Translations under genes and position numbers: made by a program
The notes under the pieces: model-generated
Told to the model about the DNA's origin: nothing
Seen by the model: the letters and a program-made list of their open reading frames with translations, nothing else
Databases searched by the model: none
NCBI GenBank assembly: GCA_026023565.1
Contig: JAPETS010000007.1
Span: 806,001-870,000, forward strand
Origin: Cirrosporium novae-zelandiae
Lineage: Eukaryota
Direction of reading: 5' to 3'
DNA: 64,000 nt
Part shown: positions 7,920-59,819 of the stretch, piece after piece
How positions within the stretch are numbered: position 1 is the first letter of the stretch
How the letters are laid out: each line of letters begins with the position of its first letter

Positions 7920-10093
7920 TTGGAACAATGAAAGTGAAATGATGGAATTTGAGAGTAGATTCCGTCGAAATGGTCGGGATGGCCTGATCAAATTGATGCT
8001 CAAACCCCGACTACAGACACATTCATGCTTCTCTCGAGATGTAACGATTCATATGCAAGTAAACAAAATGTGACAGGCTTATGCAAAAATTGTAAATCAA
8101 GAAGAGCGGGTAGTTAATGTAGAAACCCAAAGGAAAACAAGGTCAGCTAACTTCAGCTAATAAAGCCTTTTAGAAGAAAACACATGTTCAGAATAGGAAA
8201 TAGCATCGAGCCAGCATGGTAGAAAGATATTCGAAGCAATGAACAAAACACAACGGCTTCACCCTAAAAGAAAAGTGCCGCATAGGCTTCCAATTGATTA
8301 TTCGGATTTACGGAGGCATCAATGTCCTTCACGACGGTCAAAGTATGTCATCTGGTGGCGTTGTGCCACTGTCAATAAAGGGGTTCATTCTGAGCTTTAT
8401 GAGACTATGATTGGTCTCGTGAATATTCCGATATGCCAAAGGGAAGAATTTGGTATTCGATGAATGTAAAGGAGCAAAATTCTAGATTAACATGAGACAT
8501 GAGGGCTTCCATGAAGTTCTATGGTTGTAAATTTATTTAAGATTGTGGGCAAAGCAAAGTCGTAAATTTTAACTCGGGGCTACATACTTGGTCCCCTTCG
8601 AACACCGAACCAACGAGAACTCTGCAGATTTGTTGGTCACTACCACAGTATTGTCCACATCAATGACCAATGATCCATGAAGCAATCGTCTCTCGACTTA
8701 GCTAACACCTTAGTTAATCAACCAATCGTGACCTTTCTACCTCCACCTTCACCTCCACCCTCCACCCTCCACCCGACCGTTTCTCCCGACCCTTTTCAAT
8801 CTCAATTTATTAAACGATCGTGATGCTTCCGAAATTTGTATAAATACCAAGCGCCGTTCGATAGTTGTCAATATAGTATAGAGTCGCTTTTGTGAAGTGA
8901 ACCCGATCACTAGAAAGAGTAGAGAAAGAGCGGAGATTCTATAAAGTAGACTGCGGGAGGTGTAGGTGGGTATTTAAGTGAGAAAGCGGAAGAATTACTG
9001 TCATAGGACTCTGGCGTATAAGAATGAAGCCGGAGAAATGTACAATCCTCAGCTGTCGTTTAGTTGAGCATGTCGTCCTGAGATATCTACTGTATAATAT
9101 GCTAGACTGTTTTTCCTTCGAATTGACTTCCAAGGGGCAAGACTAGAATTTATTCTCATTCAAATTTCCCTTCCGACTGACTCCATCATTTCCTATCCCC
9201 TTATATCCAAAGTATGAATTCTGCTTACTCAAGTCAAATTTATTCTCCACCTCGATATCCAGACCAAGGAATTATTTATCGACCTTAAAGAGTTGGTCGG
9301 CATTTTAGAGGAGCTAGGAGCCTTTAGGGGAGTCACGCAAGTCGAGGTAGAAGAACCCGATGTCTTTGAAGCTAAATACAAGCATTTAGATCCTGCTTAA
9401 TCCAAGTCCAGGGGCTATGAGTATATTCTCGGGATATGTGGGGAGACCAGGGAATGAAGATGGGTTGGTATCCATGTCGTAGGGGTGGAGATTAATATGA
9501 TGAGATTGCAGTAACTGGTCTAGGATAAACTAGAAAACATTTTCTGGAACATTTAGGTCGATCTTTTGCTATTTTAATGTTTCTATGATATTGTATCTTG
9601 CAGCTCCCCATCTGATACTTACAGTTTCTGCCTAAGGCATGAAGGCTTCAAGATAATTTCAACAGCGGCTAGGAGGCTCCCGAGGATATAAATAGTTATC
9701 TAATCATTGACTCCCACTTTACGGTATCTTAACATCGCTATCAGTTCCTCACACGCTCGCCAAACCCCGATCTAAACTTCGGTCCATACCCTCAATCCAT
9801 TTCTACACATTCGGAAGGACTAAAGAGAATCTATTAATTAAATTGATAGCCAATATGCCGACCTCGGATTTTCGCGACCCCTTATGATAAATGCTACGAA
9901 ATGAGAATTGTATAAGAAAACGTAAAACCCTCTCACCCTTGAGGGAGGAAAATATTCACAATGGCCTCAACTCTTTCTAGCCTTTCAACTTGATACATTT
10001 CATCATTAGGAGATCCACAAATTACCAGTCTGCCTGATACCTCTCGTTTAAGAAAGTACACAATTGATATTTAAAGTATCATTACTTTGCAGG

Positions 10094-11437
10094 ATGCGTA
10101 CCTCTGTCGGTATCTTGGCCGCACTAATCCTTGGTGTGAAATCCTCCAAACCGATATCTACGATCTACAGCCGCAGACAGCTCAATACAAACGGTAGCAC
10201 ATTAAAATATGGCTCTCCAGAGTCAGTTGGTCTTCTGTCACAGCCGTTGAAGGATATGGTAGTCAACATAACCGGATATACCCTCCCAGCGAACTATGGT
10301 AGCTTTACAGATGAAATAGTTCACCCTATCCAGCCAGGAAGTGTAGTTATGGTTGGGCATCAGTCAGTTATTGTCAGTCACTTTGCAAATGGGAAAACAA
10401 ACCTCTATGCAGATTCCAATGGTACTTATCTTCCGGAGGATGAACAAATAGCCACCGAACTAGGCACCATCTATGACATGGCCAGCTTAACAAAGATCTA
10501 TACCACTATCGCCGCCTTGCAGCAAATTGATGCCGGAAATCTTTGCATAAATGTAACAGTAGCATCATACCTCCCTAAGTTTGCAACTAATGGCAAAGGA
10601 AATATCACAATTCTCATGCTCATGACCCATACTAGCGGATTCGATGCGGATCCGGATCCAGCTCTATACTCTTCAAATTATACAACGATTGCACAAAGAA
10701 TAAATGCCATAATTACTCAGAAAATTATCAATACGCCTGGTAGTACGTATCTCTACTCGGACCTGAATTTCATGAACCTTGGGCTTGTGCTCGAGGAAAT
10801 TACTGGCAAGAAGCTTGATGAGCTCATTTATTCACTTACTTCAGTGCTTGGAATGAATAGCACATTCTTCAACCGTGGCAATACAGAGGGGGCAGCTTTT
10901 CCAGAATATCCTAGAATGGTCACTGAAGAGTATCAAATCGAGGTACTTGGAGAAAGCGAACCCCACAGGCCTCAGCCAGTTCGAGGAACTGTGCATGATG
11001 AAAATGCATGGTCTGTAGATGGTGTTAGTGGACATGCAGGTCTTTTCTCCACTGTAGCAGATACAGCCATACTTTGCCAGATGATTCTTAATAATGGAAC
11101 TTATGGAGGTAGAAAAGTCTTGGAGCCGGAGACTGTTGACCTTATATTTACTAATTTTAACGCCCGTTTCCCTGATGATGCACACGGCCTTGGCTTTGAA
11201 TTGGACCAATACTATTTTTCTGGCCCCATGGCGAGCTTGCAGACTGCTGGACACACAGGATACACAGGAACTACCATGGTCATAGACCGGCCGACCAATA
11301 CCTTCTTCATTCTTTTTGCTAATCGAGTACATCCTAGCCGTGAGTGGTCTAGCAACAACATTGTTCGAGAGGCTCTAGGTTATTGGGTTGCACTCGCGCT
11401 TGGAAGAAATAACGTCACGTTTCCTTCGCTCAGTTAG
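10094..11437 (+). CDS. Secreted beta-lactamase/PBP-fold serine hydrolase, AmiE/YbbE-like (putative N-acetylmuramoyl-L-alanine exo-amidase or esterase)
   Basis: Intronless 447-aa ORF with signal-peptide-like MRTSVGILAALILGVKS. Motifs: SxxK (MASLTK), LMTHTSG, YLYSDLNF, RGTVHDENAW, GHAGLFS, GHTGYTGT, NRVHP. Many N-x-S/T sequons. Confidence 0.85.
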   Translation: MRTSVGILAALILGVKSSKPISTIYSRRQLNTNGSTLKYGSPESVGLLSQPLKDMVVNITGYTLPANYGSFTDEIVHPIQPGSVVMVGHQSVIVSHFANGKTNLYADSNGTYLPEDEQIATELGTIYDMASLTKIYTTIAALQQIDAGNLCINVTVASYLPKFATNGKGNITILMLMTHTSGFDADPDPALYSSNYTTIAQRINAIITQKIINTPGSTYLYSDLNFMNLGLVLEEITGKKLDELIYSLTSVLGMNSTFFNRGNTEGAAFPEYPRMVTEEYQIEVLGESEPHRPQPVRGTVHDENAWSVDGVSGHAGLFSTVADTAILCQMILNNGTYGGRKVLEPETVDLIFTNFNARFPDDAHGLGFELDQYYFSGPMASLQTAGHTGYTGTTMVIDRPTNTFFILFANRVHPSREWSSNNIVREALGYWVALALGRNNVTFPSLS

Positions 11438-12104: not shown

Positions 12105-13669
12105 TTATTTCCCTTCAAGTTCCAACGATATCTTTGGAGGGGCAGAAGCCTCTTTATCAAAGCTGTCCTCAGAATCAAGTGTCCTACTTGTCATCGTAAC
12201 AGTCCACACAGTTGGAATGGCAATGATTAATGCTGCAATACACAAACCCCAGTCCATTCCGAGCTGTGTCATTGGCGATTTGTCCAAAGCATTAATCCTC
12301 CAAGCCATTGCACCCCCAGTGGCTTGGAATGTCTTGTACGCTCCGACAAGAACAGCCGCAACAGTAACAGAGTTGGATTCTGTTCCAATCAGCCAGTAAC
12401 AGAACGACTGCCAAAGTGCATCATAACCCCCGTAAAACATGTACAAGAGCATTGGTCCAGCCGAAAGCGATCCCTCGGTGTAGTCGATATCCTGTTTGAG
12501 CCCTTTCGCGAGACGCCTATCTTCCCACTTCTGGAACGCATAACCGCCACCCCAGATTGCGAAACCGGATATCATAAGCACAGCCCACCCAAGACGAGAA
12601 CGCTGTCGTCGGTTGAGGGATGGAAAATCAAGTAGGGTTCCCATCAGGAAACCACCCGCCATCTGTGCGATCCAGTACAGCGCACTGTTCAGGGACCGCG
12701 TCCGGATGTTGAAGGTTGTGCCGTTTACATTATTTTGCTGGTAGGAGTAGAACACGTTTGCGCAAAAGAAGAGAGGGAGCATGCAGATAACCCTCCAACT
12801 AGCTAGCGCATTTACCATTGGTCGTATCCTATGCATCAAAGAGCCTTTCTCGTCTTCAGGTTCTTCATGGAGTTGGGTTAATCTGACTTTCGAAGGGGGA
12901 CAGATGAACACTCCAACAACCCAACCAACAGCCATGACGACCATGAGTGCGATATAAGTGGCATCTGACACCGTCCCGCTTGATGAATGATAGTTAAGTC
13001 CGAAGCTTGCGAGAGAGCCTACACCGCCTCCGAGATTGAAGATGATCCAGAATACGGCTATAGCCCTACCCTTTTGAGATTCAGGAACATAGGTGGTCAT
13101 GATTGCTCCCTGGGAGACCCAGAGAAAGGATGCACCAACTCCAAGGAGTGCTCCAGCAGCAATGACAAATGCGCCATTTTGAGTTGCTGTGATGAAAAAG
13201 TCAGTCTATATCCCTCATCCATCAACAAACAAAAAAAATCATATAAACTTCTTTTAAACTTACAGTTAAAATTCAACAAACTCCCTGCATACAAGGCATA
13301 AGTCCAGCCCCCAAGTAGCCAGCAAAGCCTCGGACCTAGAATAGAAAACACCGGACCAACAACAAACAGTGCAGTCCCTGCGGTTGCAGAGAGAAGGGCC
13401 ACATTGGCATTGGCTGCGACAGTCGAATCAACCTGGCCGGAACCTCCTAACCCTGAAAGCGCATTGTACATCTACGCCTCGAAATTCAGTCAAGACATAT
13501 TATGGATGAATTTACTATACGGGAGGATGAAGAAGTAGCTTACGCCCGGACAACAGAAGCAGATAAAACTGATTAGTAATACCTGGGTCCATGGATGCGT
13601 GTAGAATCCAGAAAAGGAGGATGTCGGTGTCGTTTCCAGGAGTGGCGGTGTTGGCTCTGTTGCTGCCAT
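12105..13669 (-). CDS. UNC-93-like/DUF895 MFS transporter (NGT1/NOPE1-like amino-sugar transporter family)
   Basis: Exons 13669-13544, 13471-13264 and 13186-12105 splice in frame via GT-AG introns (471 aa). Motifs: QVLLISFICFCCPGMYNALSGLGG, FLWVSQGAIM, KGRAIAVFW, FNIRTRSLN. About 12 hydrophobic segments. Confidence 0.85.
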
Positions 13670-14126
13670 GGTTCCTTGAAATTTCATCCAGAGTTGGTGA
13701 AGGTGGAAATAAAAATAGTCGGTCCAGCTATACTAATAGCTAAAATGAACCTTCCCTTGTAGTCATATAGATCTGATTTCTGCTATGTTAGGGAACATGA
13801 GTATGAATTAATTATATAAATTCCGGATGTGGATTCTCAGACAACTCCCCTGCCAACTCGGCTTATCTACGCCGATAGCGCTTATCTCCTCAACACCCGA
13901 CCATGAATCCAATTAAGGAATATTGCACCGAAATGTTACATTTCAGAGAAGTATCGCCTTATCTTCTGTATTGTGTTGTAGAGCACAAGAGGTGAGGTGG
14001 TTGTCGTTGCATCGTCAATCGCATTGAAAATACTGGACGAGGTTTTGGGTTGATGGACTAATAATAGGTAACCTGGAAATTTCTCCGCATGCAGCATCTA
14101 TTCCTATATGTATCTACCACAGAAAC
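13670..14126. promoter_or_regulatory. Divergent promoter shared by the transporter and the murQ-kinase gene; GATA sites and a 15-bp palindrome
   Basis: 457 bp between head-to-head ATGs. CTTATC at 13862, 13881 and 13958, GATA at 13874, and GAAATGTTACATTTC at 13930-13944. Confidence 0.55.
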
Positions 14127-16473
14127 ATGTCACCCATCGATCTTTCAACGCTGCAGACAGAAGGTTCAAATCCTAGGAGTACTGACATTGATAAAGTATC
14201 AACTCTTGAGCTATGTCAAATTATCAACAATGAGGATGCAACAGTGGCTGCGACGGTGGCCAAATGTCTACCTATCATTGCGGCCGCCATAGACACCCTG
14301 ACACCTCGAGTTCGCTGCGGCGGACGAGTAATATATGTTGGCGCTGGCACCAGTGGAAGGTAAATATTAAATCAATCAATCAATATGTAGGAGTCAAGCT
14401 GCATAGAATTTTCCTTTTCAATTAGCCGGCTGCATAGGACTTACCAGACGTCTTCTTACAACTACAGACTAGGTGTAATCGACGCATCTGAAATACCCCC
14501 AACTTACTCAGCACCGCACGAACAATTTGTAGCACTGATAGCTGGAGGCGATGCAGCTATGCGTGTCGCTCAAGAAGGCGCAGAAGATAATATCGACCTT
14601 GCAAAAGCTGATCTACAGGTCTTGAAACTTGATCCTAGAATGGACTCTGTGATTGGCATCGCGGCCTCGGGAAGGACACCGTATGTTTTGAGCTGTCTAT
14701 CGTATGCAAAGAGTTTGGGATGTGTAACGGTGGGGGTTGCATGCACCTTCCCATCCACCATGAGCGAGTCGGGAACAGTGGATTTTATGATTAGTCCTGT
14801 TACCGGCGCCGAGGTGGTGACAGGCTCTACGAGGATGAAGGCTGGGACGGCGACAAAGCTTACGTTGAATATGCTGAGTACGGGCATAATGATTAAATTG
14901 GGAAAGACGTTTGGGAATATGGTACGTTTGCTGAAAACATGGTTATGTAGAGGATATAGAGAGTGATTAAGTCTGAGTAATTGTGAGGCTGACTGACTAT
15001 TCACTTAGATGGTAGATTTAAAAGCATCGAACCTGAAGCTACAACAACGGTCACGTAACATAATTCGAAAGCTGTGTGGCTCGCTTTGTCCTAACTCTGA
15101 CGACGAGATAGATGCTCTTATATCAAAGTGTAACGGAAGTGTTAAACTTGCACTAGTTACTTTAACTCTTAATATGTCTGTTGAAGAAAGCGCTCGGCGT
15201 ATCCAAGATGCAGAGGGAAGCCTATCAGCTGTGCTAAGGAGACATGAGGAGCAACGCCTGAAAGGTGAAATTAAAGAGAAATCCCAGATGGAGAATTTTG
15301 AGCCTGTTGACTGGGTTTTGTGTGTTGATGGCGGAGGAACGAAATGTACAGCTATGATCAAGGGACAAAATGGCGAATTTGGTGAAGGGGAGGCTGGGAA
15401 TTGCAATGTGTAAGCTTCTCAGATAACTGCTAGCTTTAGCCTGCCTCCCATTAAACTGATATATTCATAGCACCGACGTTGGTACGGATTCCGCAGTATC
15501 TTGCATCAGTACTGCAGTTCAACGAGCCCTTGATGCACTTGCTACAAAAAAAGCTTCAACCCCACTTAAACTCCAATCCATCCAATTCTCCGCCGTGCTG
15601 GTTGGCCTAGCCGGCTACGAACGACCCGGAATCCGCTCCGGTATCAACTCGGCGCTCTCAGCCCTCTTCCACCACCCGGTAGGGCTAAAACTAAAGATCA
15701 TGAACGACATTGACATGCTAGCCACGGTCGCAGGCAGCAAATTACCAGTAGGAACTTCGATGTTCGTGCTCCTAGCCGGGACGGGCAGCGTAGCTATGAG
15801 ATACCAACGTCAAGAATCGGAGTTCATCAGGACCGGACGGTCTGGAGGTTGGGGCCACGTGCTCGGAGATGATGGCGGTGGATATTGGATGGGGAGACAG
15901 GCGATCCGAGCCACATTGTTGGCGCTAGATGAACTTCGGAACGAAACTGACGGTGATGGTGGTGACGGTGGTGATGCAAGAATATCATTCCAGGATTTGG
16001 GACATCTTTCCCAGAAAGTCATGCAACACTTTGAGCTGACTGAAGAAACTGCTTCTGACTCCGACCTCCTCAGCACCATCCTCGCACCTTTGCAGTCGAA
16101 CCCCAATGCAGGTTGCCCAAACATCAAGGCCAAAGTATCCAGCGCCGCGAAGCTGGTTCTGGAAGTTGGTATCACCGATCCAATCGCCCAAGACATTATG
16201 ACCATCGGCGTCCAGGAACTCATCCAGGCCCTCAAACCCCTCCTATGTCTAACTCCAAGCACTACAGCTAGAAAAAGACCTCCCCCCGATCCTAAAAACT
16301 CCGTATTAGTCTTTGGAGGCAGCCTACTCTGCAACTTGATATATCAAAAAGCGGTTCGGCAAAAGCTAGACGAAAATGGAATCTGTTTTCTGCATGTTGA
16401 GGTTGTGAATCAGCCTGCATGGAGCGGTGCCGAGTTCCTTCGGGATTGCTGCTGGACGGGTTTTAAGAATTGA
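14127..16473 (+). CDS. murQ: N-acetylmuramic acid 6-phosphate etherase (MurQ) fused to a C-terminal BadF/BadG/BcrA/BcrD-family (MurK/NAGK-like) amino-sugar kinase
   Basis: Exons 14127-14359, 14468-14921, 15009-15409 and 15471-16473 splice to a single 696-aa ORF. MurQ motifs: [78 protein letters not shown]. Kinase motifs: [39 protein letters not shown]. Confidence 0.9.
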
Positions 16474-21291: not shown

Positions 21292-23877
21292 TCACCTGAT
21301 TTTCGGCAACGGCCCAGGAAATGTAGTGAGGTATGCCATGACCGTCGGATCCACAAGCTCTTCAAGCGTAAACATGTACAGCGGCGAGTCCTCCTCCTTC
21401 TGCTGCTGCACCTCGAGCTCCTCCTTCCTCTTGCAAAAAGCCCTCAGCTCCTTACAACCCACATCCCCCTTCTTCTCCAAAAACTCCTTCATGAGGTTCC
21501 CCGACCGCGTGAGCATCAGGCTGTGCGTCATCACCGACTTGATCCCCATCTGCAGGGCGGCCTTGCCCGAGTTCATTGCGGCTAAAAGAACGTATAGGGG
21601 GATACATGGGAGTTGGGACTCGTTTTCGATGTACTGCGGGCCGTTGTACTGGACGAGTTTGTCGTGTAGTTCGGTTCGGAGCGAGCGCAGGAGTTCGATG
21701 CATCGTCGGTGAAGGCCGAAGTAGTTGAAGATGAGTCTGTTCTCCTCGTCCTCGAGGCGTTCGCGCAGCGCAGCGAGGAGCTGCAGGGAGCTCATTTTGT
21801 GGGATTTTTCCCATTGTCGTTGCAGGAGAAGCTCACCGGTTCTGGGACGGTGGGCCTTGGTGGTGGCATCTGCATTGGTTAGTTCGTTGAGGAGCTTTTC
21901 GATGTTATAGACGGAAATGTCGATGGAACCGTTGTTGCAGTACCGGCTTTTGAAAACCTCGGAGACGATGGATGTGTCTTTGAGACCCCGTGGTCCGCTC
22001 TTGGATATTATGTGGTTGAGACTGTCGGGCCGTTTTGTACCCCCTCGAAAGGAAATGGCCCCGGGAGCAACACCCATGGTGAGACAGGCCTTTTTGTACG
22101 AGTCTTCGACAGTTTTGGGCTTGGCACCAAAGAAAATTCGTTCTTCGCCGTGGAATTGAATCAACTTTTCCATGTCTGGCCAGTTTAGAGTTACCACGCC
22201 GGTTTGCTGGACCGCATTCAACAGATAGATCAGATAGACGACGGTCCCCCATGCATTGACAAAGGTGATGCCCGCTTCTTGCATCTTGAGGTTGACATTG
22301 AACATGAGAAGGCCACAAACCAACGGGTGCCGTTCGTAGAACGAAAATTCTTGATGGTCCATGGATTGGACAGGGGCGGCATGCTTCTTGACTTCATAGA
22401 GGTTGTCCCTTGTAATCCAGAAATCAATCATTTCTTTTATCTGCTCGAGGCCTCTGTCGTTTCTTTTGGGCCACGTCCCTGGATATGGCAGCGATCGCGA
22501 GAGCTGGAAATGATCGTCAAGGATTTTTCGAGTTCGGAGACCCGCGAGACGGAGTTCCTGGAAGCCTTTCGATACATTTTCTCTCAAAACGTGGTGGATG
22601 TCCAAATGTACCTGAGTGGCAAAGGCAAGCCATAGAGGTATTTCACGAGTCTTGACCATCCGTCTCATACCTCGAGTAAATTCATCTTGTGATGGCATAT
22701 TCATGTCAAATTGCTCCAAGATTGCAAATTCAGGGAAAATCTCCAAAAGAATAATTTTATCTTCCTCCAATTTCTTTGCCGGTGACATCTTCGATCGGTC
22801 TTGAAGTGGATCGTATCTTCCAAAATGGCCAGGTTTGTAAAGAGGGATACAACCAGGCTCCAGTACTCGACAAAGCGCTTCCAGAAACTGGTACATAGGA
22901 ACATAAGACCATTCAGCTACGTCTGCAGCAGCTATATTGTAGATATCATCGGCTCGTTCACGGTAGCTAGGATCTTCTCCTCGAAGATAACATGCTGTAG
23001 CAAATAGGCTTTGGGATAGGTCTATCCACTCTGTGTATTGTGGATAAGAAGCCAAACACTCCTCGGTGATTTGGCGAACGAGATCGCAAGCGGTATTTGT
23101 GGTAATGGATGCACTCATCAAATCAGTATTCCCAGATTTATAATCAGCCCATATCTGTTGTATGAACTCTCGTATGTTGTGCATATCTTCAAAGAGGCAG
23201 TACACCTCAAATAATATAGACAAGATATCAATCTCTTTTTCATTATTTCCTTCACCTTCATCGACTTCAAAGGTTTGAGTCTGCGGTTCCTTCTTGCTGG
23301 TCATTTGGCTGTTACTAGTCATGTCAACATCGGTTTCTAGCTCTTCTGTCTCTAGTAAAGAGAATTTGTTGGCTAGCTCCTCCAAGGTCGGATTGTTGTC
23401 AACTTTTGGAGAGGAATCGGCTCGGAGCTTGTCTAGCTCCTTGTTGCTCAGTGGTGATAGTATTTCCAAAACCTCCTCAAACACAGTTATGAAGTACTGA
23501 TGCCCCTCGTCATTGTTGGTTACGTGCTTACTAAACCAGTTCGCACATCGCTTTCGTGCACCTATAGCACGTTGAGCGATACCGATGATGGCCAACGGCA
23601 CTTGGACAGCCTTTCCGGAGGTGGCAATTTGCTTAGCAAGAGAGGTAAATTCAGCCAAAGAGATCCTGTATTTGATGGGGGATGGGTTATCTTCATTGTT
23701 TTCCTTTTTCTTTTTATTCTTCTTTTTGCTCTTTTTCCCCCCACCTAGATTTGTGGTGGGTTGAGAGAATTCTTTCTGATAGCCGCATGTCTGAGCTGCT
23801 TTAACCAGCCAGGTGGTGAACCGATCAGTATCAGACTTGTAGCGTTTATAGCTACCGTATAGAAACTTGGGAAGCAT
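21292..23877 (-). CDS. DUF6604-like fungal hypothetical protein
   Basis: Intronless 861-aa ORF. N-terminal YKRYKSDTDRFTTWL followed by a Lys-rich stretch, AIGARKRCANWF, GHQYFI and HPLVCGL, all characteristic of this family. Confidence 0.75.
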   Translation of the reverse strand: MLPKFLYGSYKRYKSDTDRFTTWLVKAAQTCGYQKEFSQPTTNLGGGKKSKKKNKKKKENNEDNPSPIKYRISLAEFTSLAKQIATSGKAVQVPLAIIGIAQRAIGARKRCANWFSKHVTNNDEGHQYFITVFEEVLEILSPLSNKELDKLRADSSPKVDNNPTLEELANKFSLLETEELETDVDMTSNSQMTSKKEPQTQTFEVDEGEGNNEKEIDILSILFEVYCLFEDMHNIREFIQQIWADYKSGNTDLMSASITTNTACDLVRQITEECLASYPQYTEWIDLSQSLFATACYLRGEDPSYRERADDIYNIAAADVAEWSYVPMYQFLEALCRVLEPGCIPLYKPGHFGRYDPLQDRSKMSPAKKLEEDKIILLEIFPEFAILEQFDMNMPSQDEFTRGMRRMVKTREIPLWLAFATQVHLDIHHVLRENVSKGFQELRLAGLRTRKILDDHFQLSRSLPYPGTWPKRNDRGLEQIKEMIDFWITRDNLYEVKKHAAPVQSMDHQEFSFYERHPLVCGLLMFNVNLKMQEAGITFVNAWGTVVYLIYLLNAVQQTGVVTLNWPDMEKLIQFHGEERIFFGAKPKTVEDSYKKACLTMGVAPGAISFRGGTKRPDSLNHIISKSGPRGLKDTSIVSEVFKSRYCNNGSIDISVYNIEKLLNELTNADATTKAHRPRTGELLLQRQWEKSHKMSSLQLLAALRERLEDEENRLIFNYFGLHRRCIELLRSLRTELHDKLVQYNGPQYIENESQLPCIPLYVLLAAMNSGKAALQMGIKSVMTHSLMLTRSGNLMKEFLEKKGDVGCKELRAFCKRKEELEVQQQKEEDSPLYMFTLEELVDPTVMAYLTTFPGPLPKIR

Positions 23878-24299
23878 TTTAAAAATCCTAGAAATGATAA
23901 AGCAGCCTCAGCTGAGGACCTGTGACAGGTCAGATCTGCCCCGAATGATTGAGGTGTTGGCTTCCTCCAAGGTTGTTGTTAGTTGGGGTTGTCGGACAAG
24001 GTGTCAAGGTAATTGTGGGGAATAATCGCTAACTTTATCTTATCTTATCTCTTCCAGTCATCATCTGTTATCTTATCCTATCACATCTACATCAATTCGA
24101 TCATTCTTCTATTCTACCTGTAATTTCTAATCCCTCGTTATAACACAGCGGTAAGCGCCTGATCCTTGAAACAAATTGTCACCTCCATCACCGACCAGCA
24201 AACTATAATACCACATGATAATAAAAAAACAAAATGTCCAACGTACATGGATTATTTTTGAGATATCCACAACTGCTAGGCAAATCCCAAGATTTTTAT

Positions 24300-26268
24300 T
24301 CACCCCCATGTCGATATAATTCTTAGATTCCGTGCTAGTTGATATTTCATCCATTCCGCCTGCCCCTCTCTAAGGCGAAATCCTTGGCCCAAAATGTATT
24401 GAAAGTATGGAACCAAGTTCCATGCCACAAAAACGGCGATAGTTCGTTTCGCCATCAGAGGCAGGGAGGGGTCGTCAATATCATTAGCGCCAGCTATGTG
24501 ACCCGATCGTGGCATTCCTTGGGGGCAGTATTGAAGGGGAGCACTGGAACAGACACCGTCAACTAGCGACTGAATAATGGCGTAACTTTCTCGAATGTCG
24601 CAAGAGATTTGGGACTCCTCAAGTCTGGATGCACATTTGATAATCACCGAGTGAACCAGCATTCGATAGCAGCGATAACGATTCCAGGTCAATACAACGA
24701 ATGGGTCAGGATAAATATCGTATGTCCCATTGTAAACAAGGGAATCTTTGTCCTTATCCATGGGCTGAGCAACAGTTACTGGTATCCAAGCTGGAGGGAT
24801 CGAATCAGGCCAGCTTGAAATGGCTTCTTCGGCCTTGAGAGCCTCTCGGAAGAGGGTAATGATTTCCTCCATCTTAGCTGTAGAGAGAGCTGTCTCCATC
24901 CTGGCTTGTAATGGTATGACCCCGACGGATAATGTGTTGAGGAGAGATTCGGGATCATCTTGGCCGCGTTCATCCACAACTGACTCGGATAAAATATCCA
25001 AGTTTTCATTAGCTGGACCAAGAGACGAGCTGGGCCAAACCGATGACCAAACAGCATGACGTATCTAGAGTGTGTTAGGGCTAGGTAGCTTTACAAAAGT
25101 AGAATAAATTGCTACTCACAAGCTCACTTTGCACTGCAATTGCCAAGTGGCGAGATATTTCAGTAGCAGATTGCACACCTCCACGGTGTTTGACCAGGGC
25201 TGCTGCTCCCTGGATATGAGTTGGTGGCACTGGTTTCCCGCATTTGATGCCTTTGACGTGCTTTATGGCCATTTAGTAATGATACTGGTACCAAATATTG
25301 TCACTTGTGCATTGGATGTTAAATGAAATGGCCGTCTGAAGAAAGCCAGGACCGAATTGAAAACCACGGTTAGAAAGATGTCAAATCTCTCGATTGAAGG
25401 ATTTAATTTTGGTAGAGATCTATATTCACGCAGAACACACCCAAGACATTAAGACAAAGGTTTCAAGCCAGCTTAGACTGAGTTGTGCAAACTGCAAACC
25501 ACCCCTCGATTCAAGAAAACGACAAAAATCAATGGAAGTTGGATACGAACCTCATATGCTACTAAGAGTAAGACGGCCATCAAAGTCTCATCGCTCCGAC
25601 TCTCTACTGGATCTTGAATTGCAATCCTTGTGGCTGATATTGCTTTGGAGAAGTAAAGGTCTCCCCTCATTTTGTCCGTATTTCTACCATTTAAACCACC
25701 AAAGGCAGAGAGCGAGACTGCGGTAGTGGCCAAGGAGAGGAGTGAGCCATTTCTGGCTTTTAAGTATGATGAAAGCAAATAGTCGGCAAATCCTCGACGA
25801 ATTCGGGGATCTCGAGGAGATAAGATATAGGTATTGAAGAAAAATGACAAAGCTTGTTGTTCTGGCGGAATCTGCAGGATGTCTCTGATGGGATGTGATC
25901 CTGGCCAGCCGTCACCCACCGTACTCAGTGTTGTATCTGAAGGATAGGGCCTCTTCTTGCCAGAGCACTCTATAATCTGAGTTGACTCTACTGGTTCTTT
26001 TTTGGGTTCTAATTTGTCCTTGTTTCGATACCTGTGTTGAACGTCGGCGGTACTGTCCTTTAGCATTAAATCAAAGCTATCTTTGTATCCAGGACATTTC
26101 CACCCAGATCTGACACATTTTCCACACTCCGGGGAAGTTTCGTCACACTATACTCAGAAGTAAGCGTGCATGTTCTCGGAAATGTCAATCTTCATAACCA
26201 TGGCTTACTTTGATATGGCGCTTTTTGCAATTGGCACAACCTCGGCTCGGTTTTCCCCTGTACACCAT
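24300..26268 (-). CDS. Zn(II)2Cys6 transcription factor with fungal-specific TF domain, multi-exon
   Basis: MVYRGKPSRGCANCKKRHIK, then an intron, then CDETSPECGKCVRSGWKCPGY. Downstream exons contain DETLMAVLLL, HIQGAAALVKHRG and WNRYRCYR. Confidence 0.85.
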
Positions 26269-38217: not shown

Positions 38218-40294
38218 CTAGTCATTCCACTTTACCTTGATCATATCGGCAGCTTTCTCCGCAATCGCATATAATGTGCTCGAGAGATGTCCACACACTT
38301 GAAAAGGTAGTACAGACGCATCCACCACTCGCACGTTGCTGGTTCCGTAAACAACGAGCTTGGAATCTACCACTCCCCCCAGCTCCTTTGCCATCATAGC
38401 TGCAGTTCCAAGAGGATGCGAATTGGGGCCATCTAAAGTCAGAAAATAAGTTTCGACTTTCGAAAATAATTAGAATCATGAGAAACTGACATGCTTCCTT
38501 GAACCATTCTCCCCAAGCTTGGTCACTGGCGTTGAAAGGGACAGTGGTGACACCGGGGGAAGTCTCGCTATTCACATAGTTGCTTAATGGTTTCGTGTAG
38601 AGAACTTTTCGGGTAAATCTCGCTACTGCTGCTTGCTGGATGATATCCCAATCCAACATGAAAAAGTTGGGATTAATTAAAGGCGAAGCACTGATGTTTT
38701 TTGATGATATATGTACGCCCCCCCTAGAAAACGGGAAAAGACTCCAAAATGTAGCTCCGATCGAGGTAGCACTTGGTACTGTGAGAATCTCTCCCATGGG
38801 GATACCGGACTTGAATATTAGGTCTGCCTGTTTTCTTAAAAGGGTTTCCTGTGCCGCTTGACTAGTTGAGTTGTTGGATTGCTCAGCTATGGTAGTGGCA
38901 AATGCGGGAATGCTCTGGTAAACGTATGCTTCCATGGCACTTGTCTTATTTCCAAATAGATCAAGGGCTGAAGTATAAGTGGCGTAGGATGGGTAGCCTT
39001 CAAAGGACGTGTTGGCGGAGGCATACATGTATACGTTTGACTGATCCTGAAGATTCTCTCCAACTCTTGGTAATGCGATTTGGACAGGGATGGAATACTT
39101 TTGGAGAATACTGTTGCAGTATATTAGCTTTTCTCGGACACAAAATTAATGTCTGTGGGAAAGGGAGGAATTAATTGTCTTTACGTAGATTCCATGTATG
39201 ACTAGACATTTGCTTTGAGAGCTGTGCATAGTTGGAGGCGAATGCAGTATAGAGACGTACGTTGGGTTTCCTACGCCAGAATTTTCCAAAAGCAACGGAG
39301 ACCTTAAGGAGCCAGCTGAGAGAATAATTTCACGACTGGCAAAGAGTGTGCTCTCCACACCATCCGCTGTAGTTATATTGACACCACTCGCTAACGACTT
39401 GTTGCCCTGAAAAGTAGCACTCCATGTCAATCTGTTGGCAAGAGTATTTGTAAAGACCTTCAGGTTTGGTCTTTTAGATATGGGCCAATAATAATCCCGC
39501 GCAGCATCTGCTCTGATGTCAGTGCTAGCATTAAGTGTAAAAGGCCACACAGTAAACCCAAGCATCTCGCCACCGTTAGCATCTGCCCTATACGGTATAC
39601 CCAAATTTTGCCATGTAGCATTGACGATTGCATGAGCATCTCCACCCATCATTGTGGAACTCCAGCCAACAGGTACAGGGCCTGTGGAGCCATGCATGCT
39701 TGAGTTGAATGCAGCACCATCCATTCGTTGCTTGCTATTCGGCCGTTGAAAATATTCGCTTTTTTTATAGTATGGCCACAGCTCAGCCCAATTCCATCCA
39801 GTATTTCCAAGTTCTTCCCATGCGTCAATTTCAACATTTTGGGCTCGTAAGTAGGTCATGCCTAGACGGTAAACTACTATTAGCTTCACATCACTCTCTA
39901 GCTCATTATTAGGCAGTGATATAAATATTGTACCATTAATTGTGCTGGTTCCGCCTAGCGCCTTGCCTGCATGATATATCTGGGTTTCATTGCCGGCATA
40001 TATTTGGAGAGTGCTGGAGTAGGCCCAGTCTATACTGGTGCCAAGGGAAAGGCCAAATGTGGTGGTGTTGGTGACATTGGGATTATTGAACACTGAGTCT
40101 CCAGCTTCAATCACAGCAACTGTTATGGCTGGGTTTTCAGAGAGTCGATTTGCTACGACTAAACCACTAGTTCCACCCCCGACAATGATATAATCATAAT
40201 GAGATTCGTTGTATGATAAACAGCTAACAATTTGGAAAAGTGCTTGAATTATGAACAGCACGAAAGGGTTGAGAATAACGAGATGGATAGCCAT
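38218..40294 (-). CDS. Secreted GMC oxidoreductase, glucose oxidase/glucose dehydrogenase-like
   Basis: [62 protein letters not shown]. The final exon has [10 protein letters not shown]…RVVDAS…[15 protein letters not shown] (His/His catalytic pair). Three introns. Confidence 0.9.
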
Positions 40295-40838
40295 CGGAAT
40301 GAAAATGAGAAGAGATGGGAGGATGCATGTTCGACGAAATGGATACTTTAACGGAAAAATAAGTCAGATGCATCTCGTTAAAGAGCTGCTTGTTCCTGGG
40401 GGCTCAATCCAGAGTGATAGATGCGGAAATGATTAACTACAAGTGTTTCCTCCGCATTTTAATTTCCATAGGGCTGACACAGCCGGGTCGGGTCCTACAG
40501 CTCCGACTTCCGGGCTGAACATGTTCCATCAGGCTTGGCATGGAATCTTTGCTTTATCGAGTGTTAACAAGTTATTGATTTTGCAATTCTTTAATAGCAG
40601 CAGGCCTTCTGCATTTCCTCAACTACCTAGGTAGTTTCCTACGACTTAACCAGGTCTTTCAGTCTACCGCTATGACCATCACAGCCTCTTCCTCATCAAG
40701 CATCTTCGAGAGCAGTCTAAATAGACAATCCATCTGAGAGTCTGTGCCATCAGAGTATAGGCTCTGCGAATCCTAAATAATGAATCAGTCCAATGTTATT
40801 TCCACCGATGGTATAAGAATGAACATGCTTACTATTCA

Positions 40839-55670: not shown

Positions 55671-56175
55671 TCAAGCCAAAATGAAGCTGATAGTAGACAC
55701 GAATTGCGTAAACCCAGATGGAATGGATTTACTGTGGTACTTGGTTGCTATGTACTTGTAGAATACCTAAATGGATACTGTGTGCCTATTGGTCCGAATG
55801 ATTGTTTATCGCTTACCTCATCATTGTTCATTTTCGGCATTTCAAAGCCCCGACAGCCTCCAACAGCTCCATCACCATTGATAGGAAGAATCTTACAAAG
55901 TCGAGACTCGAATTACTGTCATTACAGAATTATGTCGCTATTCATTCCAGTATCTCCCGCCATCCCATCCACCATGGCGTGCGAGCATAGAGCCTCTGTA
56001 TTACACGGCTGGGCCTTCCACGCTGCCCTCTGTAGTGTCAGTGCAATAGGACTCGAACTCGGGTTTAGGAGAACTGCTATTACGTCAATTTCTAATTCAT
56101 CTCCAGCTATCCTTTGGTGAAATAATTCTCAGAATTCTGTTGTTTCTTTGCAATATCTTATCTTTTTGTTTGGAA

Positions 56176-57917
56176 ATGGCAGATGAAGAACAAGCAAAAC
56201 CTTTGTTATCCTCGATCAAACAGACCCCAGAACCATCGGAGATCTCATCGATATATGGCTCCGTACATTCCAGAGGAGAGATCCTCAACGACAATCCGCT
56301 GAGATCTATCGAGGATGATGTTATTCCAGAAACAGCCACATATGGGAGAAATGTGACATGGGCGAGTGCCTATATTCTCGTCATATCTCGAATAATCGGC
56401 AGTGGAATATTTGCAATGCCCGGGGCTGTTGTGAAGTCGGTTGGCAGCGTGGGGATATCACTGATGGTATGGGCATTAGGCGCAATTATTGCTGCTTGTG
56501 AAGCCATGGTAACTCTGGAATATGGTTGCATGCTCCCTCGATCAGGCGGAGACAAGGTCTATCTCGAATTCACCTATCGCCATCCACGATATCTGGCTTC
56601 TACTATGGTAGCTATTAAAGCTGTACTTCTAGGATTCACCGCAAGTAACTGCATCGTCTTTGGGAAATATACACTTTTTGCTTTAGATGGTGAGTCAACA
56701 GATGCAGCACAGAAGCTTTTAGCAGTGGGTCTTCTTACCTTTATCACGATTATCCATGGCTGCTTTCTCAGGACTGGCATATTAATTCAAAATGCTCTTG
56801 GCTGGATCAAGGTTGTTCTGATAATATTTGTCGCTTTGACCGGTCTCTATGTTCTCATCTTCCGACCTCAAAACACATACGGGCCAACACCAAGTGCTGA
56901 TGTCCTTTCCTGGAATGAACTCTGGAGAGATTCTAGGTGGGGCTGGGGTATTTTATCCACTTCTATTTTCAAGGTTTCTTATTCCTATGCTGGATTATCT
57001 AATGTTAATAATGTCCTCAACGAGGTCAAGAATCCTGTCAGGACGTTGAAGTCGATTGTTCCAACGGCTTTGCTTACAGCTTGTATTTTGTACCTTCTGG
57101 TTAACCTGGCATACTTTGTCGTCGTCCCATTGAATGATATCAAGGAGAGTGGAGAACTTATCTCTGCTCTATTTTTCTCGCGAGTCTTTGGACCTGGCTT
57201 CGGAGATAAACTTCTACCTCTTGCAATTGCGATTTCCGCTGCTGGAAACGTTATGGTCGTTACATTTACCTTGGTATGTGCTCTCTATTCGCATTTATTG
57301 ATTGTTGCTAATACGAGATAGGCGCGTGTAAATCAAGAGATTGCGCGACAAGGATTTCTGCCATGGGCTCGCATTCTTTCCTCGTCGTTACCATTCAATG
57401 CTCCACTTGGGGGGCTCATTGTACATTATATTCCGTCTGTGTTGGTCATAGTTTTCCCTCCTTCAGCTGACGTCTATGCATTCATTGCCGATGTTGAGGG
57501 CTATCCTGGTCAATTCTTTGCACTAGCTACCGCTGTCGGCTTAATATGGCTCAGATATAAAAGACCAGATCTGCACCGACCGTTTAAAGCTTGGTTGCCT
57601 GCTGTGTGGCTAAGAATTGCTATTTGCATCACTTTGATCGTAGCTCCCTTCTTCCCTCCAGCCGATGGGGTAGGGGATGTCAGTTTCTTCTATGCAACCT
57701 ATGCAATCGTGGGTATCGGAATGTAAGTTGCTTGCTATGCCATTAACCTCGTCGTATTTATTAGACTGACAATCGCAGACTTGTTTTATCCGTCCTGTAT
57801 TGGTACGTCTGGATTATTGTCATTCCTAGGTGGAAGGGATATAGAATCGAAGATGAGGTGGAAGTACTTGAGGATGGTACAAGCAGAACGAGACTTGTTC
57901 ATATCAAGGAGGATTGA
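56176..57917 (+). CDS. APC-superfamily amino acid permease, methionine permease (MUP1/MUP3)-like
   Basis: IIGSGIFAMPG, EYGCMLPRSGGDKVYLE, SYAG…NEVKNP, ARVNQEIARQG and RPDLHRPFKAW. Introns at about 57274-57321 and 57723-57778. Confidence 0.88.
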
Positions 57918-58322
57918 TCTCTTGCCTTTGCTAGATTTGATATAGATAGGGTTTAGAATTTTGTAGGATTAAGATGTATGCTTGCAGAGGCATAGATTTC
58001 TTATGATAATCAACCTTGACTCCCTCCAGTTATTGTATTTCGGTAATAGCGGAGTTAGTATTTTCCCCAAGGATGATCCGTGTGACCTCGTTCTACCTCA
58101 TAATGATTACTATGTTACCATCGTCCACATTCCTCACGTCAGAAGCTCAACATTCCTCAAAAGTCAATATGAATTCATCTATTTTGCCGTTTGCTGTTGT
58201 AGGTAGTTTGGAATTTCTTTCAAACTCTCTTCAACTGGCTCTTTGTATCTCCCATCTACTTTTCTATAGGAAGAAATTACGAGTTAACTCACCCATAAGT
58301 AGAGTGACCTTGATCGAATACA

Positions 58323-59819
58323 ATGGATGTACATAACAAAGATGTGGCGGCGATTGCCGCTCATGTACGAGTATTCTACGACTGCAAAGAAAAGTTCCAT
58401 ATATATCATGGTTCGACGAACAGTACGCGGACTACTCAATTCGACCGCAAAAAGGTCATCGATACAAGCCGTCTTTCCCGAGTGCTGAAGGTAGACCACT
58501 ACAACAAAACTGTCCTGGTTGAGCCGAATGTGCCTATGGATCGCCTTGTGGAGAAAACAATGAAACATGGATTAATCCCACCTGTTGTCATGGAGTTCCC
58601 TGGCATTACGGTCGGAGGAGGCTTCGCTGGCACGGCGGGGGAGAGCAGTTCCTTCAAGTATGGATTCTTCCACTGCACAATCAACTGGATTGAGATGGTA
58701 CTTGCCAATGGCGACATTGTCACAGCTTCGAATACAGAGAGAAGCGACCTTTTCCACGGGGCAGCAGGTTCCTTTGGGACTATGGGCGTTACCACGTTGC
58801 TAGAGCTGAAGTTGATTGAAGCACAACCATTCGTGAAATTAACGTACCACCCAATACTTAGTGTAGAAGAAGGCATTCAAAAGATCGAAGAAGCAAGGGC
58901 AGACTCTTCCACTGATTATATTGACGGAATCCTCTTCGGCTATGATGTCGGGGTAATAATCACAGGCCGGCTAACAGATAAAACTCCAATAGAAAATCAA
59001 ATGCAGCGCTTCAGCCGTGCCAAGGACCCCTGGTTCTACCTACACGTAAAGAAGAACCTCGCGAGACACCACTACACATCATGGACAGAAGCCGTTCCAC
59101 TAAAGGATTACCTATTTCGCTACGACCGCGGCGGCTTCTGGACAGGCGCCCTCGCCTTCAAGTACTTCCTAACGCCCTTCAACCGCATCACTCGCTGGCT
59201 CCTAGATCCGCTCATGCATACTCGGGTCATGTACCACGCTCTGCACAAAAGCGGCCTCTCAGACAGCTACATAATCCAAGACCTAGCAGTTCCTTACTCC
59301 GCCGCCCCCGATCTAATTTCCTACATCGACTCAACGCTAGACATCTACCCCCTGTGGCTCTGCCCCCTCCTCCAAATGGACAATAACAATAATAAAAACT
59401 TCTCCATGTACCCTCACACCCGTACTAACACCCCGCTCCTCAACATCGGCGTCTGGGGCCCCGGTTCTTCCACTCCCTTATCTCTCAAAACCATCAATCG
59501 CGACCTCGAGAAAGAGGTTTGCTTCCTAAGCGGCATAAAGTGGCTCTACGCCCAAACTTACTACACGGAAGCCGAATTCTGGGATATCTACGACCGCAAG
59601 TCGTATGATGCACTACGTGCTAAATATCATGCAACGTATTTGCCTAGCGTATTCGATAAGGTAAGGATGAAAGAGAATGAGGATGGAAAAGGGGATTCTT
59701 CATGGCGGAGTTGGGTTGTAGGGAACCTGAAGGAGGTTTGGCCGCTTAGGGGGTTGTGGGGGGTTTTGATGGCGGTGATGGGGGGTGAGTATCTTTTACG
59801 TGGGAAGAAAGACGCATAG
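58323..59819 (+). CDS. FAD-binding oxidoreductase, delta24-sterol reductase (DHCR24/DWF1)-like
   Basis: Intronless 498 aa. HGSTNSTR, VEPNVPMDRLV, PVVMEFPGITVGGG, ESSSFKYGFF, YLFRYDRGGFW, QDLAVP, PLWLCP, KWLYAQTYY. Confidence 0.85.
   Translation: MDVHNKDVAAIAAHVRVFYDCKEKFHIYHGSTNSTRTTQFDRKKVIDTSRLSRVLKVDHYNKTVLVEPNVPMDRLVEKTMKHGLIPPVVMEFPGITVGGGFAGTAGESSSFKYGFFHCTINWIEMVLANGDIVTASNTERSDLFHGAAGSFGTMGVTTLLELKLIEAQPFVKLTYHPILSVEEGIQKIEEARADSSTDYIDGILFGYDVGVIITGRLTDKTPIENQMQRFSRAKDPWFYLHVKKNLARHHYTSWTEAVPLKDYLFRYDRGGFWTGALAFKYFLTPFNRITRWLLDPLMHTRVMYHALHKSGLSDSYIIQDLAVPYSAAPDLISYIDSTLDIYPLWLCPLLQMDNNNNKNFSMYPHTRTNTPLLNIGVWGPGSSTPLSLKTINRDLEKEVCFLSGIKWLYAQTYYTEAEFWDIYDRKSYDALRAKYHATYLPSVFDKVRMKENEDGKGDSSWRSWVVGNLKEVWPLRGLWGVLMAVMGGEYLLRGKKDA

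Follow-up and report, generated by a model that had tools for sequence, protein, structure and literature searches.

A predicted MurNAc kinase and MurNAc-6-phosphate etherase fused in one intron-containing gene of Cirrosporium novae-zelandiae, an orthologue of a fungus-wide family

The sugar kinase MurK of Clostridium acetobutylicum accepts N-acetylmuramic acid (MurNAc) as well as N-acetylglucosamine (GlcNAc) (PMC10465942), and human NAGK, whose substrates are GlcNAc, MurNAc and muramyl peptides (PMC11716661, PMC10465942), phosphorylates muramyl peptides at C6 (PMC10465942). Hxk1 of Candida albicans, the canonical fungal GlcNAc kinase, rejected MurNAc and muramyl dipeptide (PMC11716661). The regulatory protein GKRP is reported to have evolved from MurQ, the MurNAc-6-phosphate (MurNAc-6P) etherase, and a GKRP-like protein of Naegleria gruberi has been reported as an active etherase (bioRxiv 10.64898/2026.05.08.723886). 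In the present study, we analyzed a 64,000-nt stretch of the genome of Cirrosporium novae-zelandiae (Pezizomycotina, class Xylobotryomycetes; assembly GCA_026023565.1, contig JAPETS010000007.1, positions 806,001-870,000, forward strand), referred to as the window. A gene at positions 14127-16473 on the plus strand was found to encode a MurQ-type domain followed by a BadF/NAGK/MurK-type sugar kinase domain in one 696-aa polypeptide. Its best-supported function, which we consider probable, is the sequential conversion of MurNAc to MurNAc-6P and then to GlcNAc-6-phosphate (GlcNAc-6P) and D-lactate.

As shown in Table 1, the gene consists of four exons and three GT-AG introns, read directly from the sequence together with the stop-to-stop list of open reading frames (ORFs). 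The exons sum to 2091 nt, which corresponds to 696 codons and the stop codon TGA (16471-16473), and each of the three introns, if left unspliced, puts a stop in frame. An earlier reading of the letters made without database searches, called here the sequence-only reading, had joined four ORF fragments into this frame, and its coordinates turned out to be exact. When the exon pieces were placed on the NCBIfam MurQ model NF003915, exon 1 covered model positions 3-74, exon 2 covered 76-223 and exon 3 covered 224-298 of 300, with exon 2 alone scoring 202.6 bits. The splice model is therefore no chance fit, because the splices restore contiguous NF003915 coordinates that are collinear and gapless. 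Furthermore, a database search with exon 4 recovered a deposited 696-aa protein (P0005) of 100% identity under the name 'MAG: hypothetical protein M1834_008896 [Cirrosporium novae-zelandiae]' (MAG, metagenome-assembled genome), which showed all three derived junctions, including GTSGR/LGV, FGNM/MVDLK and GNCNV/TDVG.

The boundary between the two domains was located within exon 3, which holds both the end of MurQ and the VDGGGT start of the kinase. The MurQ lid reaches approximately residue 308 (15245), the linker, a charged helix, spans about residues 301-325, and the VDGGGT motif contains D336 (15327-15329); the secondary structure of lid and linker was taken from an AlphaFold2 (AF2) model. 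In a profile search with the exon 3 piece, its residues 1-79 matched MurQ and its residues 103-133 matched the NagK_SO3507 model. As the junction lies inside an exon, the fusion is independent of any splice, which agrees with what had been proposed before.

At the site of intron 1, we also observed that the orthologue of Polytolypa hystricis (P0006) carries a 9-residue insertion, QVKYYLLLL, directly after GAGTSGR. As the insertion coincides exactly with the intron site, the intron position is presumably conserved and the splice site was mis-called when that orthologue was annotated.

The etherase half was examined by profile, sequence and structure searches. Residues 6-308 passed the TIGR00274 MurQ equivalog with 332.5 bits against a cut-off of 302, and the same half passed NF003915 (356.2 bits, cut-off 168, model positions 3-298 of 300) and NF009222 (345.8 bits, cut-off 255). 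In a search against solved structures, residues 5-304 matched Yersinia MurQ 4s12 (256.8 bits, E 3.7e-75) and Haemophilus influenzae MurQ 4lzj (237 bits, E 3.4e-69), whereas GKRP structures scored just 49-67 bits against 237-257 for the MurQ structures. With the AF2 model as query, Foldseek gave 4s12, 4lzj and 4m0d, whose target TM-scores were 0.78-0.83 at E-values down to 5e-22, consistent with a single SIS domain plus helical lid. The match to bacterial MurQ is collinear over its full length (residues 5-304) at 42-46% identity and shares the SIS-plus-lid fold (TM about 0.8) and both glutamates; the fungal gene differs in being nuclear, with three introns and a 390-residue C-terminal extension made of linker and kinase, and in that its activity is predicted.

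We then looked at the residues expected to act in catalysis. E86 in the DASE motif (codon 14490-14492) and E117, the second Glu of EGAED (14583-14585), were both present, as claimed in the sequence-only reading, and they align with H. influenzae MurQ positions 89 and 120 (offset +3). In alignment A1, comprising 29 Pezizomycotina orthologues that are 44-56% identical to the 696-aa protein, E86, E117 and also E114 (14574-14576) were invariant in 29 of 29. The two glutamates are taken by us to be the catalytic residues, equivalent to Glu83 and Glu114 of Escherichia coli MurQ.

A GKRP identity was considered for this half and rejected, since one SIS domain (PF22645, residues 51-158) was found instead of two and the GKRP scores lay far below those of MurQ. 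Vertebrate GKRP shares MurQ descent and the SIS and lid modules, but it is a duplicated protein of about 620 aa with two SIS domains and no kinase domain. A check named in the sequence-only reading, whether the N-terminal domain groups with GKRP or with MurQ, thus favoured MurQ. Judged by these sequence comparisons, the N-terminal domain is a full MurQ-type MurNAc-6P etherase and not of the GKRP type.

For the kinase half, residues 332-692 matched PF01869 (BadF/BadG/BcrA/BcrD ATPase) with 56.9 bits against a gathering cut-off of 31.5, and the Pfam search gave no match to the AnmK domain PF03702 in the 696-aa protein. The best solved relative by both sequence and fold was C. acetobutylicum MurK 8zo3 (E 2.8e-12 / 1.2e-12; Foldseek E 2e-14), and the next solved kinase relatives by sequence were the Sulfolobus hexokinase 2e2n and human NAGK 2ch5/2ch6. 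Foldseek ranked the MurQ structures first, followed by 8zo3, 2e2n, 2ch5, 1zc6 and the Tannerella forsythia MurK structures 8oqw/8ow9. We assign the C-terminal domain, which has the ASKHA kinase fold, to the BadF/NAGK/MurK-type sugar kinases, in line with the MurK/NAGK type named in the sequence-only reading.

The residues that were invariant in this half are D336 and G338 (DGGGT), N362, D442, G466-T-G-S469, R486, G489-W490-G491, D496, G498 and G646. Exon 4 carries the motifs TNDID (D442), AGTGS (466-469), a GGWGH-containing motif (486-502) and a C-terminal GG (G646). DxGxT is a phosphate-binding motif whose function is covered in PMC10465942; for the other kinase motifs, among them phosphate-binding GTGS and the catalytic Asp (D442), we presume the roles generally ascribed to them. 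Because the catalytic and ATP-binding residues are invariant in A1, both halves look catalytically competent and under selection.

We next compared the position that faces the lactyl group of MurNAc. In T. forsythia MurK this is P134 (S133-P134-L135) and in NAGK it is G145; a small residue is needed there to make room for the lactyl ether, and Glu or His shuts out MurNAc (PMC10465942). In the fungal protein, Gly489 aligns with NAGK G145, and C. acetobutylicum MurK 8zo3 has the very same RSGGWGH. The whole motif 486-502 aligns with RSGGWGHIIGDEGSGY of MurK 8zo3 and GGWGHMMGDEGSAYW of NAGK. The small lactyl-pocket residue is suggestive of a fungal kinase domain that can accept MurNAc. The second MurNAc determinant of PMC10465942, the T94 position, is unmappable at this level of identity.

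Compared with C. acetobutylicum MurK (8ZO3) and T. forsythia MurK/K1058 (8OQW, 8OW9, 8OW7), the fungal domain shares DxGxT, GTGS, RSGGWGHxxGDxGxGY and the small lactyl-pocket residue, but it is only 14-20% identical, about 60 residues longer and fused to MurQ, and its specificity is predicted. The AF2 model, built with the 29 orthologues, had a mean predicted local distance difference test (pLDDT) score of 80.5 and a predicted template modelling (pTM) score of 0.54; pLDDT dips near residues 525-580 marked low-confidence insertions in the kinase. Human NAGK (2CH5/2CH6) belongs to the same kinase superfamily branch and has the GGWGH motif and Gly at 145, but it is 16-17% identical and stand-alone, and its role is GlcNAc salvage and NOD2 ligand activation rather than MurNAc catabolism.

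Coupling of MurQ to a kinase was also surveyed in bacteria. The prokaryote scan, with one genome per species, took the best 80 of 599 relatives, and a metagenome scan took 80 loci; the custom ORF analysis covered 160 loci, two genes counting as adjacent if their stop-to-stop ORFs shared a strand and lay less than 400 nt apart. Both domains were found in a single ORF at the Gemmatales/Gemmataceae loci L081 and L082, in part at L112, and on three metagenome contigs (L001, L002, L006). A murQ gene directly followed by a separate BadF-type kinase ORF was found at no fewer than 12 genome loci (L083-L088, L090, L091, L093, L094, L098, L132), mostly of Planctomycetota, plus one MAG each under the labels Chloroflexota, Lysobacterales, Proteobacteria and Nitrosopumilus, and the kinase stood directly upstream of murQ at three or more loci (L096, L111, L125). 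Named bacterial fusions were those of Gemmataceae (P0280) and, in reverse order, of Coraliomargarita (P0188). By ORF analysis and kinase tree, the kinase-bearing loci of the metagenome scan were bacterial in type, intronless and clustered with bacterial MAGs. In the MurQ tree as well as in the kinase tree, the murQ-plus-kinase pair of the locus labelled as a Nitrosopumilus MAG (L083) falls tightly together with Rubripirellula (Planctomycetota), and this contig is probably mis-binned.

Other kinase families appeared as partners too. An exhaustive search of representatives at 50% identity gave 10,969 matches at E <= 0.001; the best 150 of these, classified with custom domain hidden Markov models, comprised 56 MurQ-kinase proteins, 29 kinase-MurQ proteins and 65 MurQ proteins without this kinase. 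Pfam on 30 of the 150 revealed AnmK-MurQ (P0173, P0180, P0199, P0230) and ROK-MurQ (P0248). Going by domain matches, MurQ is coupled to kinases of three families; either partner may come first, and both neighbouring and fused pairs occur. The operons and fusions of Planctomycetota (Gemmataceae, Pirellulales, Aeoliella, Rubripirellula, Ca. Kuenenia), the Coraliomargarita type, AnmK-MurQ and ROK-MurQ would all follow the same logic, a MurNAc-6P-making kinase together with MurQ, and the Gemmataceae fusions have the same domain order as the fungal protein. They differ in being intronless and in having kinases in clades apart from the fungal one, AnmK and ROK being other kinase families. Among the comparative arguments for a kinase that feeds MurQ, this repeated coupling weighs most.

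The spread of the fusion in fungi was determined with the whole protein as query, which gave 6129 proteins at E <= 0.001 among 8000 scored candidates. Among the matches listed, the best 120 of 120 carried PF01869 and PF22645, across Pezizomycotina. Leaving aside the identical deposit, 119 of 119 listed were 640-715 aa long, with 44-55% identity over 86-99% of the query and the same domain order. Named sources include Aspergillus, Penicillium, Talaromyces, Trichophyton, Nannizzia, Cladophialophora, Fonsecaea, Exophiala, Xylaria, Metarhizium, Beauveria, Cordyceps, Pseudogymnoascus, Cadophora, Zasmidium and Xylona. Cluster look-ups found same-order fusions in Saccharomycotina (Kuraishia capsulata, Candida boidinii), and such fusions were also seen in Basidiomycota (Amanita thiersii, Cyathus striatus), in Mucoromycota (a cluster holding an Umbelopsis ramanniana protein) and in Zoopagomycota (Smittium simulii).

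A second, long-branched paralogue group of the same fusion within Pezizomycotina was found in Pochonia, Niveomyces, Aspergillus calidoustus and a Chaetothyriales species, and its clade (P0135, P0150, P0151, P0158, P0164, P0196) had support of 100 (starred) in the MurQ tree and 98 (starred) in the kinase tree. Stand-alone MurQ-length proteins of the basidiomycetes Naematelia and Marasmius were among the closest relatives of the N-terminal domain. A word-based search for stand-alone kinase relatives returned 13 proteins, of which P0137 and P0160 were partial fused versions; the sole named bacterial match was Paenibacillus NagK with 49 bits.

The C. novae-zelandiae protein is structurally alike to this MurQ-kinase family throughout. 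It is one more orthologue of a fungus-wide family, and on the evidence of these homologues neither recent nor lineage-specific. The fusion is already catalogued and labelled in databases for well over a hundred fungi. The novelty implied by the sequence-only reading therefore did not hold, given the identical deposited protein and the large labelled family throughout fungi. Its warning that the gene could be mistaken for a glucokinase regulator was borne out, as 'putative glucokinase regulator family protein' is the name given to many orthologues.

Three unrooted trees were built to address the origin of the pair. The MurQ-domain FastTree contained 221 rows, each with at least 240 matched model positions, and placed all 32 fungal or fungus-clustering rows in a single group (SH-like support 93, not starred), within a weakly supported set that includes murQ-plus-kinase sequences of Planctomycetota and Chloroflexota. 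An IQ-TREE 'quick' run under a mixture model used 88 rows hand-picked from the 221; it showed a Dikarya group of 28 rows (96, starred), it set the Dikarya, Umbelopsis-cluster and Smittium rows together on one side of a branch with support 61, and its bacterial sister group was an open polytomy. The kinase-domain FastTree had 107 rows, after rows with fewer than 250 matched positions or envelopes above 480 residues were dropped, and gave several long-branch-join warnings. It contained a fungal clade of 33 rows (95, starred), with a long-branched Smittium row (1.73) just outside in a weak group, and the Planctomycetota-type kinases formed a separate clade of 36 rows (98, starred).

Since the trees of both domains showed the same fungal subgroups, the two domains have shared one evolutionary course since early fungal history. 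The fusion is old by this measure, and not a recent acquisition whose introns were gained in this lineage alone. The sequence-only reading had proposed a bacterial origin followed by intron gain: the bacterial origin of the linked pair is plausible and consistent with the unrooted per-domain trees, whereas recent intron gain in this lineage alone was not sustained. Any named donor lineage was rejected, as the three trees gave no bacterial sister group. It is a tentative idea, to which we give somewhat less than even chances, that the fungi from Zoopagomycota to Pezizomycotina share one route, in which a predicted MurNAc kinase and MurNAc-6P etherase polypeptide for assimilating peptidoglycan MurNAc was acquired once, early, from a Planctomycetota-like bacterial murQ-kinase operon or fusion.

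The sequential function can be described as follows. The protein would be a cytosolic two-domain enzyme for the use of MurNAc, a sugar specific to bacterial peptidoglycan. Its C-terminal kinase would use ATP to phosphorylate C6 of free MurNAc, and probably that of GlcNAc too. The MurQ domain would then strip the D-lactyl ether from MurNAc-6P by two-glutamate elimination and hydration, giving GlcNAc-6P and D-lactate, and the GlcNAc-6P could be passed on to the usual GlcNAc pathway of fungi. It is reasonable for a eukaryote to have a dedicated kinase, because no phosphotransferase system (PTS) delivers MurNAc-6P and Hxk1 rejects MurNAc. We infer both activities, the kinase substrate, bacterial wall debris as the source of MurNAc, and the physiological role. 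The functional proposal of the sequence-only reading was thus a sensible one, and its interpretation as a whole was partly supported.

Several points weigh against the sequential function. The kinase is just 14-24% identical to solved kinases, so that its specificity cannot be read from sequence. The Shewanella-type GlcNAc kinase equivalog NagK_SO3507 (NF046058) failed with 66.2 bits against 370, covering only model positions 11-179 of 295, and the UniRef name for orthologues is 'N-acetyl-D-glucosamine kinase'. Substrate channelling is unsupported, because the low pTM makes the placement of the domains relative to each other unreliable. The gene model is itself a gene prediction combined with homology. 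In the window, the 36 large ORFs that were scanned with Pfam contained no lysozyme, amidase, hexosaminidase or GlcNAc-6P deacetylase/deaminase, and no activity report for any fungal member was found in the full-text literature.

Some of these points would fit a kinase that is mainly a GlcNAc or broad hexose kinase, with the two domains converging on GlcNAc-6P in parallel and MurNAc-6P coming from elsewhere. The UniRef name agrees with such a kinase, as do the NagK model being the sole NCBIfam kinase match, the second-best solved relative being the broad-specificity Sulfolobus hexokinase, and the use of both sugars by C. acetobutylicum MurK itself (PMC10465942). However, without a PTS and with Hxk1 rejecting MurNAc, the MurQ domain would have no substrate unless a MurNAc kinase is present; moreover, the fungal protein has Gly at the lactyl-pocket position, as in MurNAc-phosphorylating enzymes, and fusions of MurQ to kinases recur, one of these kinases being AnmK, which yields MurNAc-6P. 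We therefore regard parallel convergence as unlikely.

A different ether-linked or modified phosphosugar, fungal or environmental and not derived from peptidoglycan, might instead be the substrate. Fungi make no MurNAc, the scan of the 36 large ORFs in the window gave no peptidoglycan-degrading gene, and the fungal kinases sit in a long-branched clade apart from those of bacteria, all of which would suit another substrate. Against this, the MurQ domain is 42-46% identical over its full length to characterised or solved bacterial MurQs and lies above the equivalog cut-off. We know of no alternative substrate for the MurQ family, and a different phosphosugar appears quite improbable to us.

It is less credible still that the MurQ-like domain is a GKRP-like phosphosugar-binding regulator of the attached kinase that does not cleave ethers. 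Such a role would match the GKRP-named Pfam families assigned to the SIS and to the lid (PF22645, together with a sub-threshold PF20741), the 'glucokinase regulator family' annotation of orthologues and the derivation of GKRP from MurQ (bioRxiv 10.64898/2026.05.08.723886), but the domain has a single SIS and MurQ length without the duplicated GKRP architecture, scores far higher with MurQ than with GKRP structures, passes the MurQ equivalog cut-off and retains both catalytic glutamates in every one of the 29 orthologues. Finally, a bacterial contaminant in a MAG, a mis-joined gene model or a pseudogene can practically be dismissed: although the deposited record is a MAG and transcript evidence for C. 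novae-zelandiae is lacking, the frame is broken by three spliceosomal-type introns, the flanking genes are of fungal type (Zn(2)Cys6 factor, DUF6604, intron-containing MFS), the same architecture occurs in orthologues of more than 100 isolate genomes, and every catalytic motif is conserved in an intact frame.

If the sequential MurNAc-to-GlcNAc-6P function is true, the family would represent a eukaryotic, kingdom-wide route for feeding on bacterial wall debris, one that the canonical fungal GlcNAc kinase cannot provide, and it would perhaps also make or remove phosphorylated muropeptide signals. Such a route is of interest for the way in which fungi and bacteria interact, for bacterial necromass turnover in soil and lichens, and for the handling of muropeptides by fungi. 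As a sequence feature the gene is ordinary; its value lies in the biochemistry of the whole family, many members of which wrongly bear the name of a glucokinase regulator or a GlcNAc kinase. The full-text literature yielded no study of the fungal fusion, where older papers possibly treating eukaryotic MurQ homologues fall outside the coverage, and a search there for 'glucokinase regulator family protein' found nothing. A Monascus genome paper gives murQ as a pathway annotation (PMC9159588), and a study of ant genomics describes murQ transfers into Camponotini, with murQ transfer called previously unreported (PMC13320244).

Table 1. Exons and introns of the MurQ-kinase gene, and other genes of the window.
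Feature	Position	Strand	Description
Exon 1	14127-14359	+	ATG at 14127; residues 1-77 and two bases of the R78 codon; MurQ N-terminus to GAGTSG
Intron 1	14360-14467	+	GTAAAT...ACAG, 108 nt, phase 2; in-frame TAA directly after the donor
Exon 2	14468-14921	+	residues 78-229; SIS core of MurQ
Intron 2	14922-15008	+	GTACGT...TTAG, 87 nt, phase 0; has CTGAC branch-like sites
Exon 3	15009-15409	+	residues 230-363; MurQ C-terminal lid, linker helix, kinase start
Intron 3	15410-15470	+	GTAAGC...ATAG, 61 nt, phase 2
Exon 4	15471-16473	+	residues 363-696 and TGA; remainder of BadF/NAGK/MurK-type kinase
MFS/UNC-93-like transporter, intron-containing	12105-13732 (ORF pieces)	-	PF07690, PF05978; upstream of the MurQ-kinase gene and divergent from it, about 400 bp between starts
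S12 serine hydrolase, 'beta-lactamase' family	10052-11437	+	PF00144, 159.5 bits; beyond the transporter, two genes from the MurQ-kinase gene
Ordinary fungal genes	21292-23907, 25473-26147, 56050-57726, 58314-59819	-, -, +, +	including DUF6604 protein, Zn(2)Cys6 factor fragment, FAD_binding_4 oxidase
GMC oxidoreductase	38222-40363	-	ordinary fungal gene of the window

Two neighbouring genes may be mentioned in connection with MurNAc use. The MFS/UNC-93-like transporter is a possible co-regulated importer by its position; no evidence ties it to MurNAc. The solved relatives of the S12 hydrolase were mixed, including esterases, ClbP, Flp and the R61 DD-peptidase (a DD-carboxypeptidase) at 30-63 bits, and it is a guess that it acts on peptidoglycan stem peptides. 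The ordinary fungal genes of the window also include an amino-acid permease split by an intron or a frame change.

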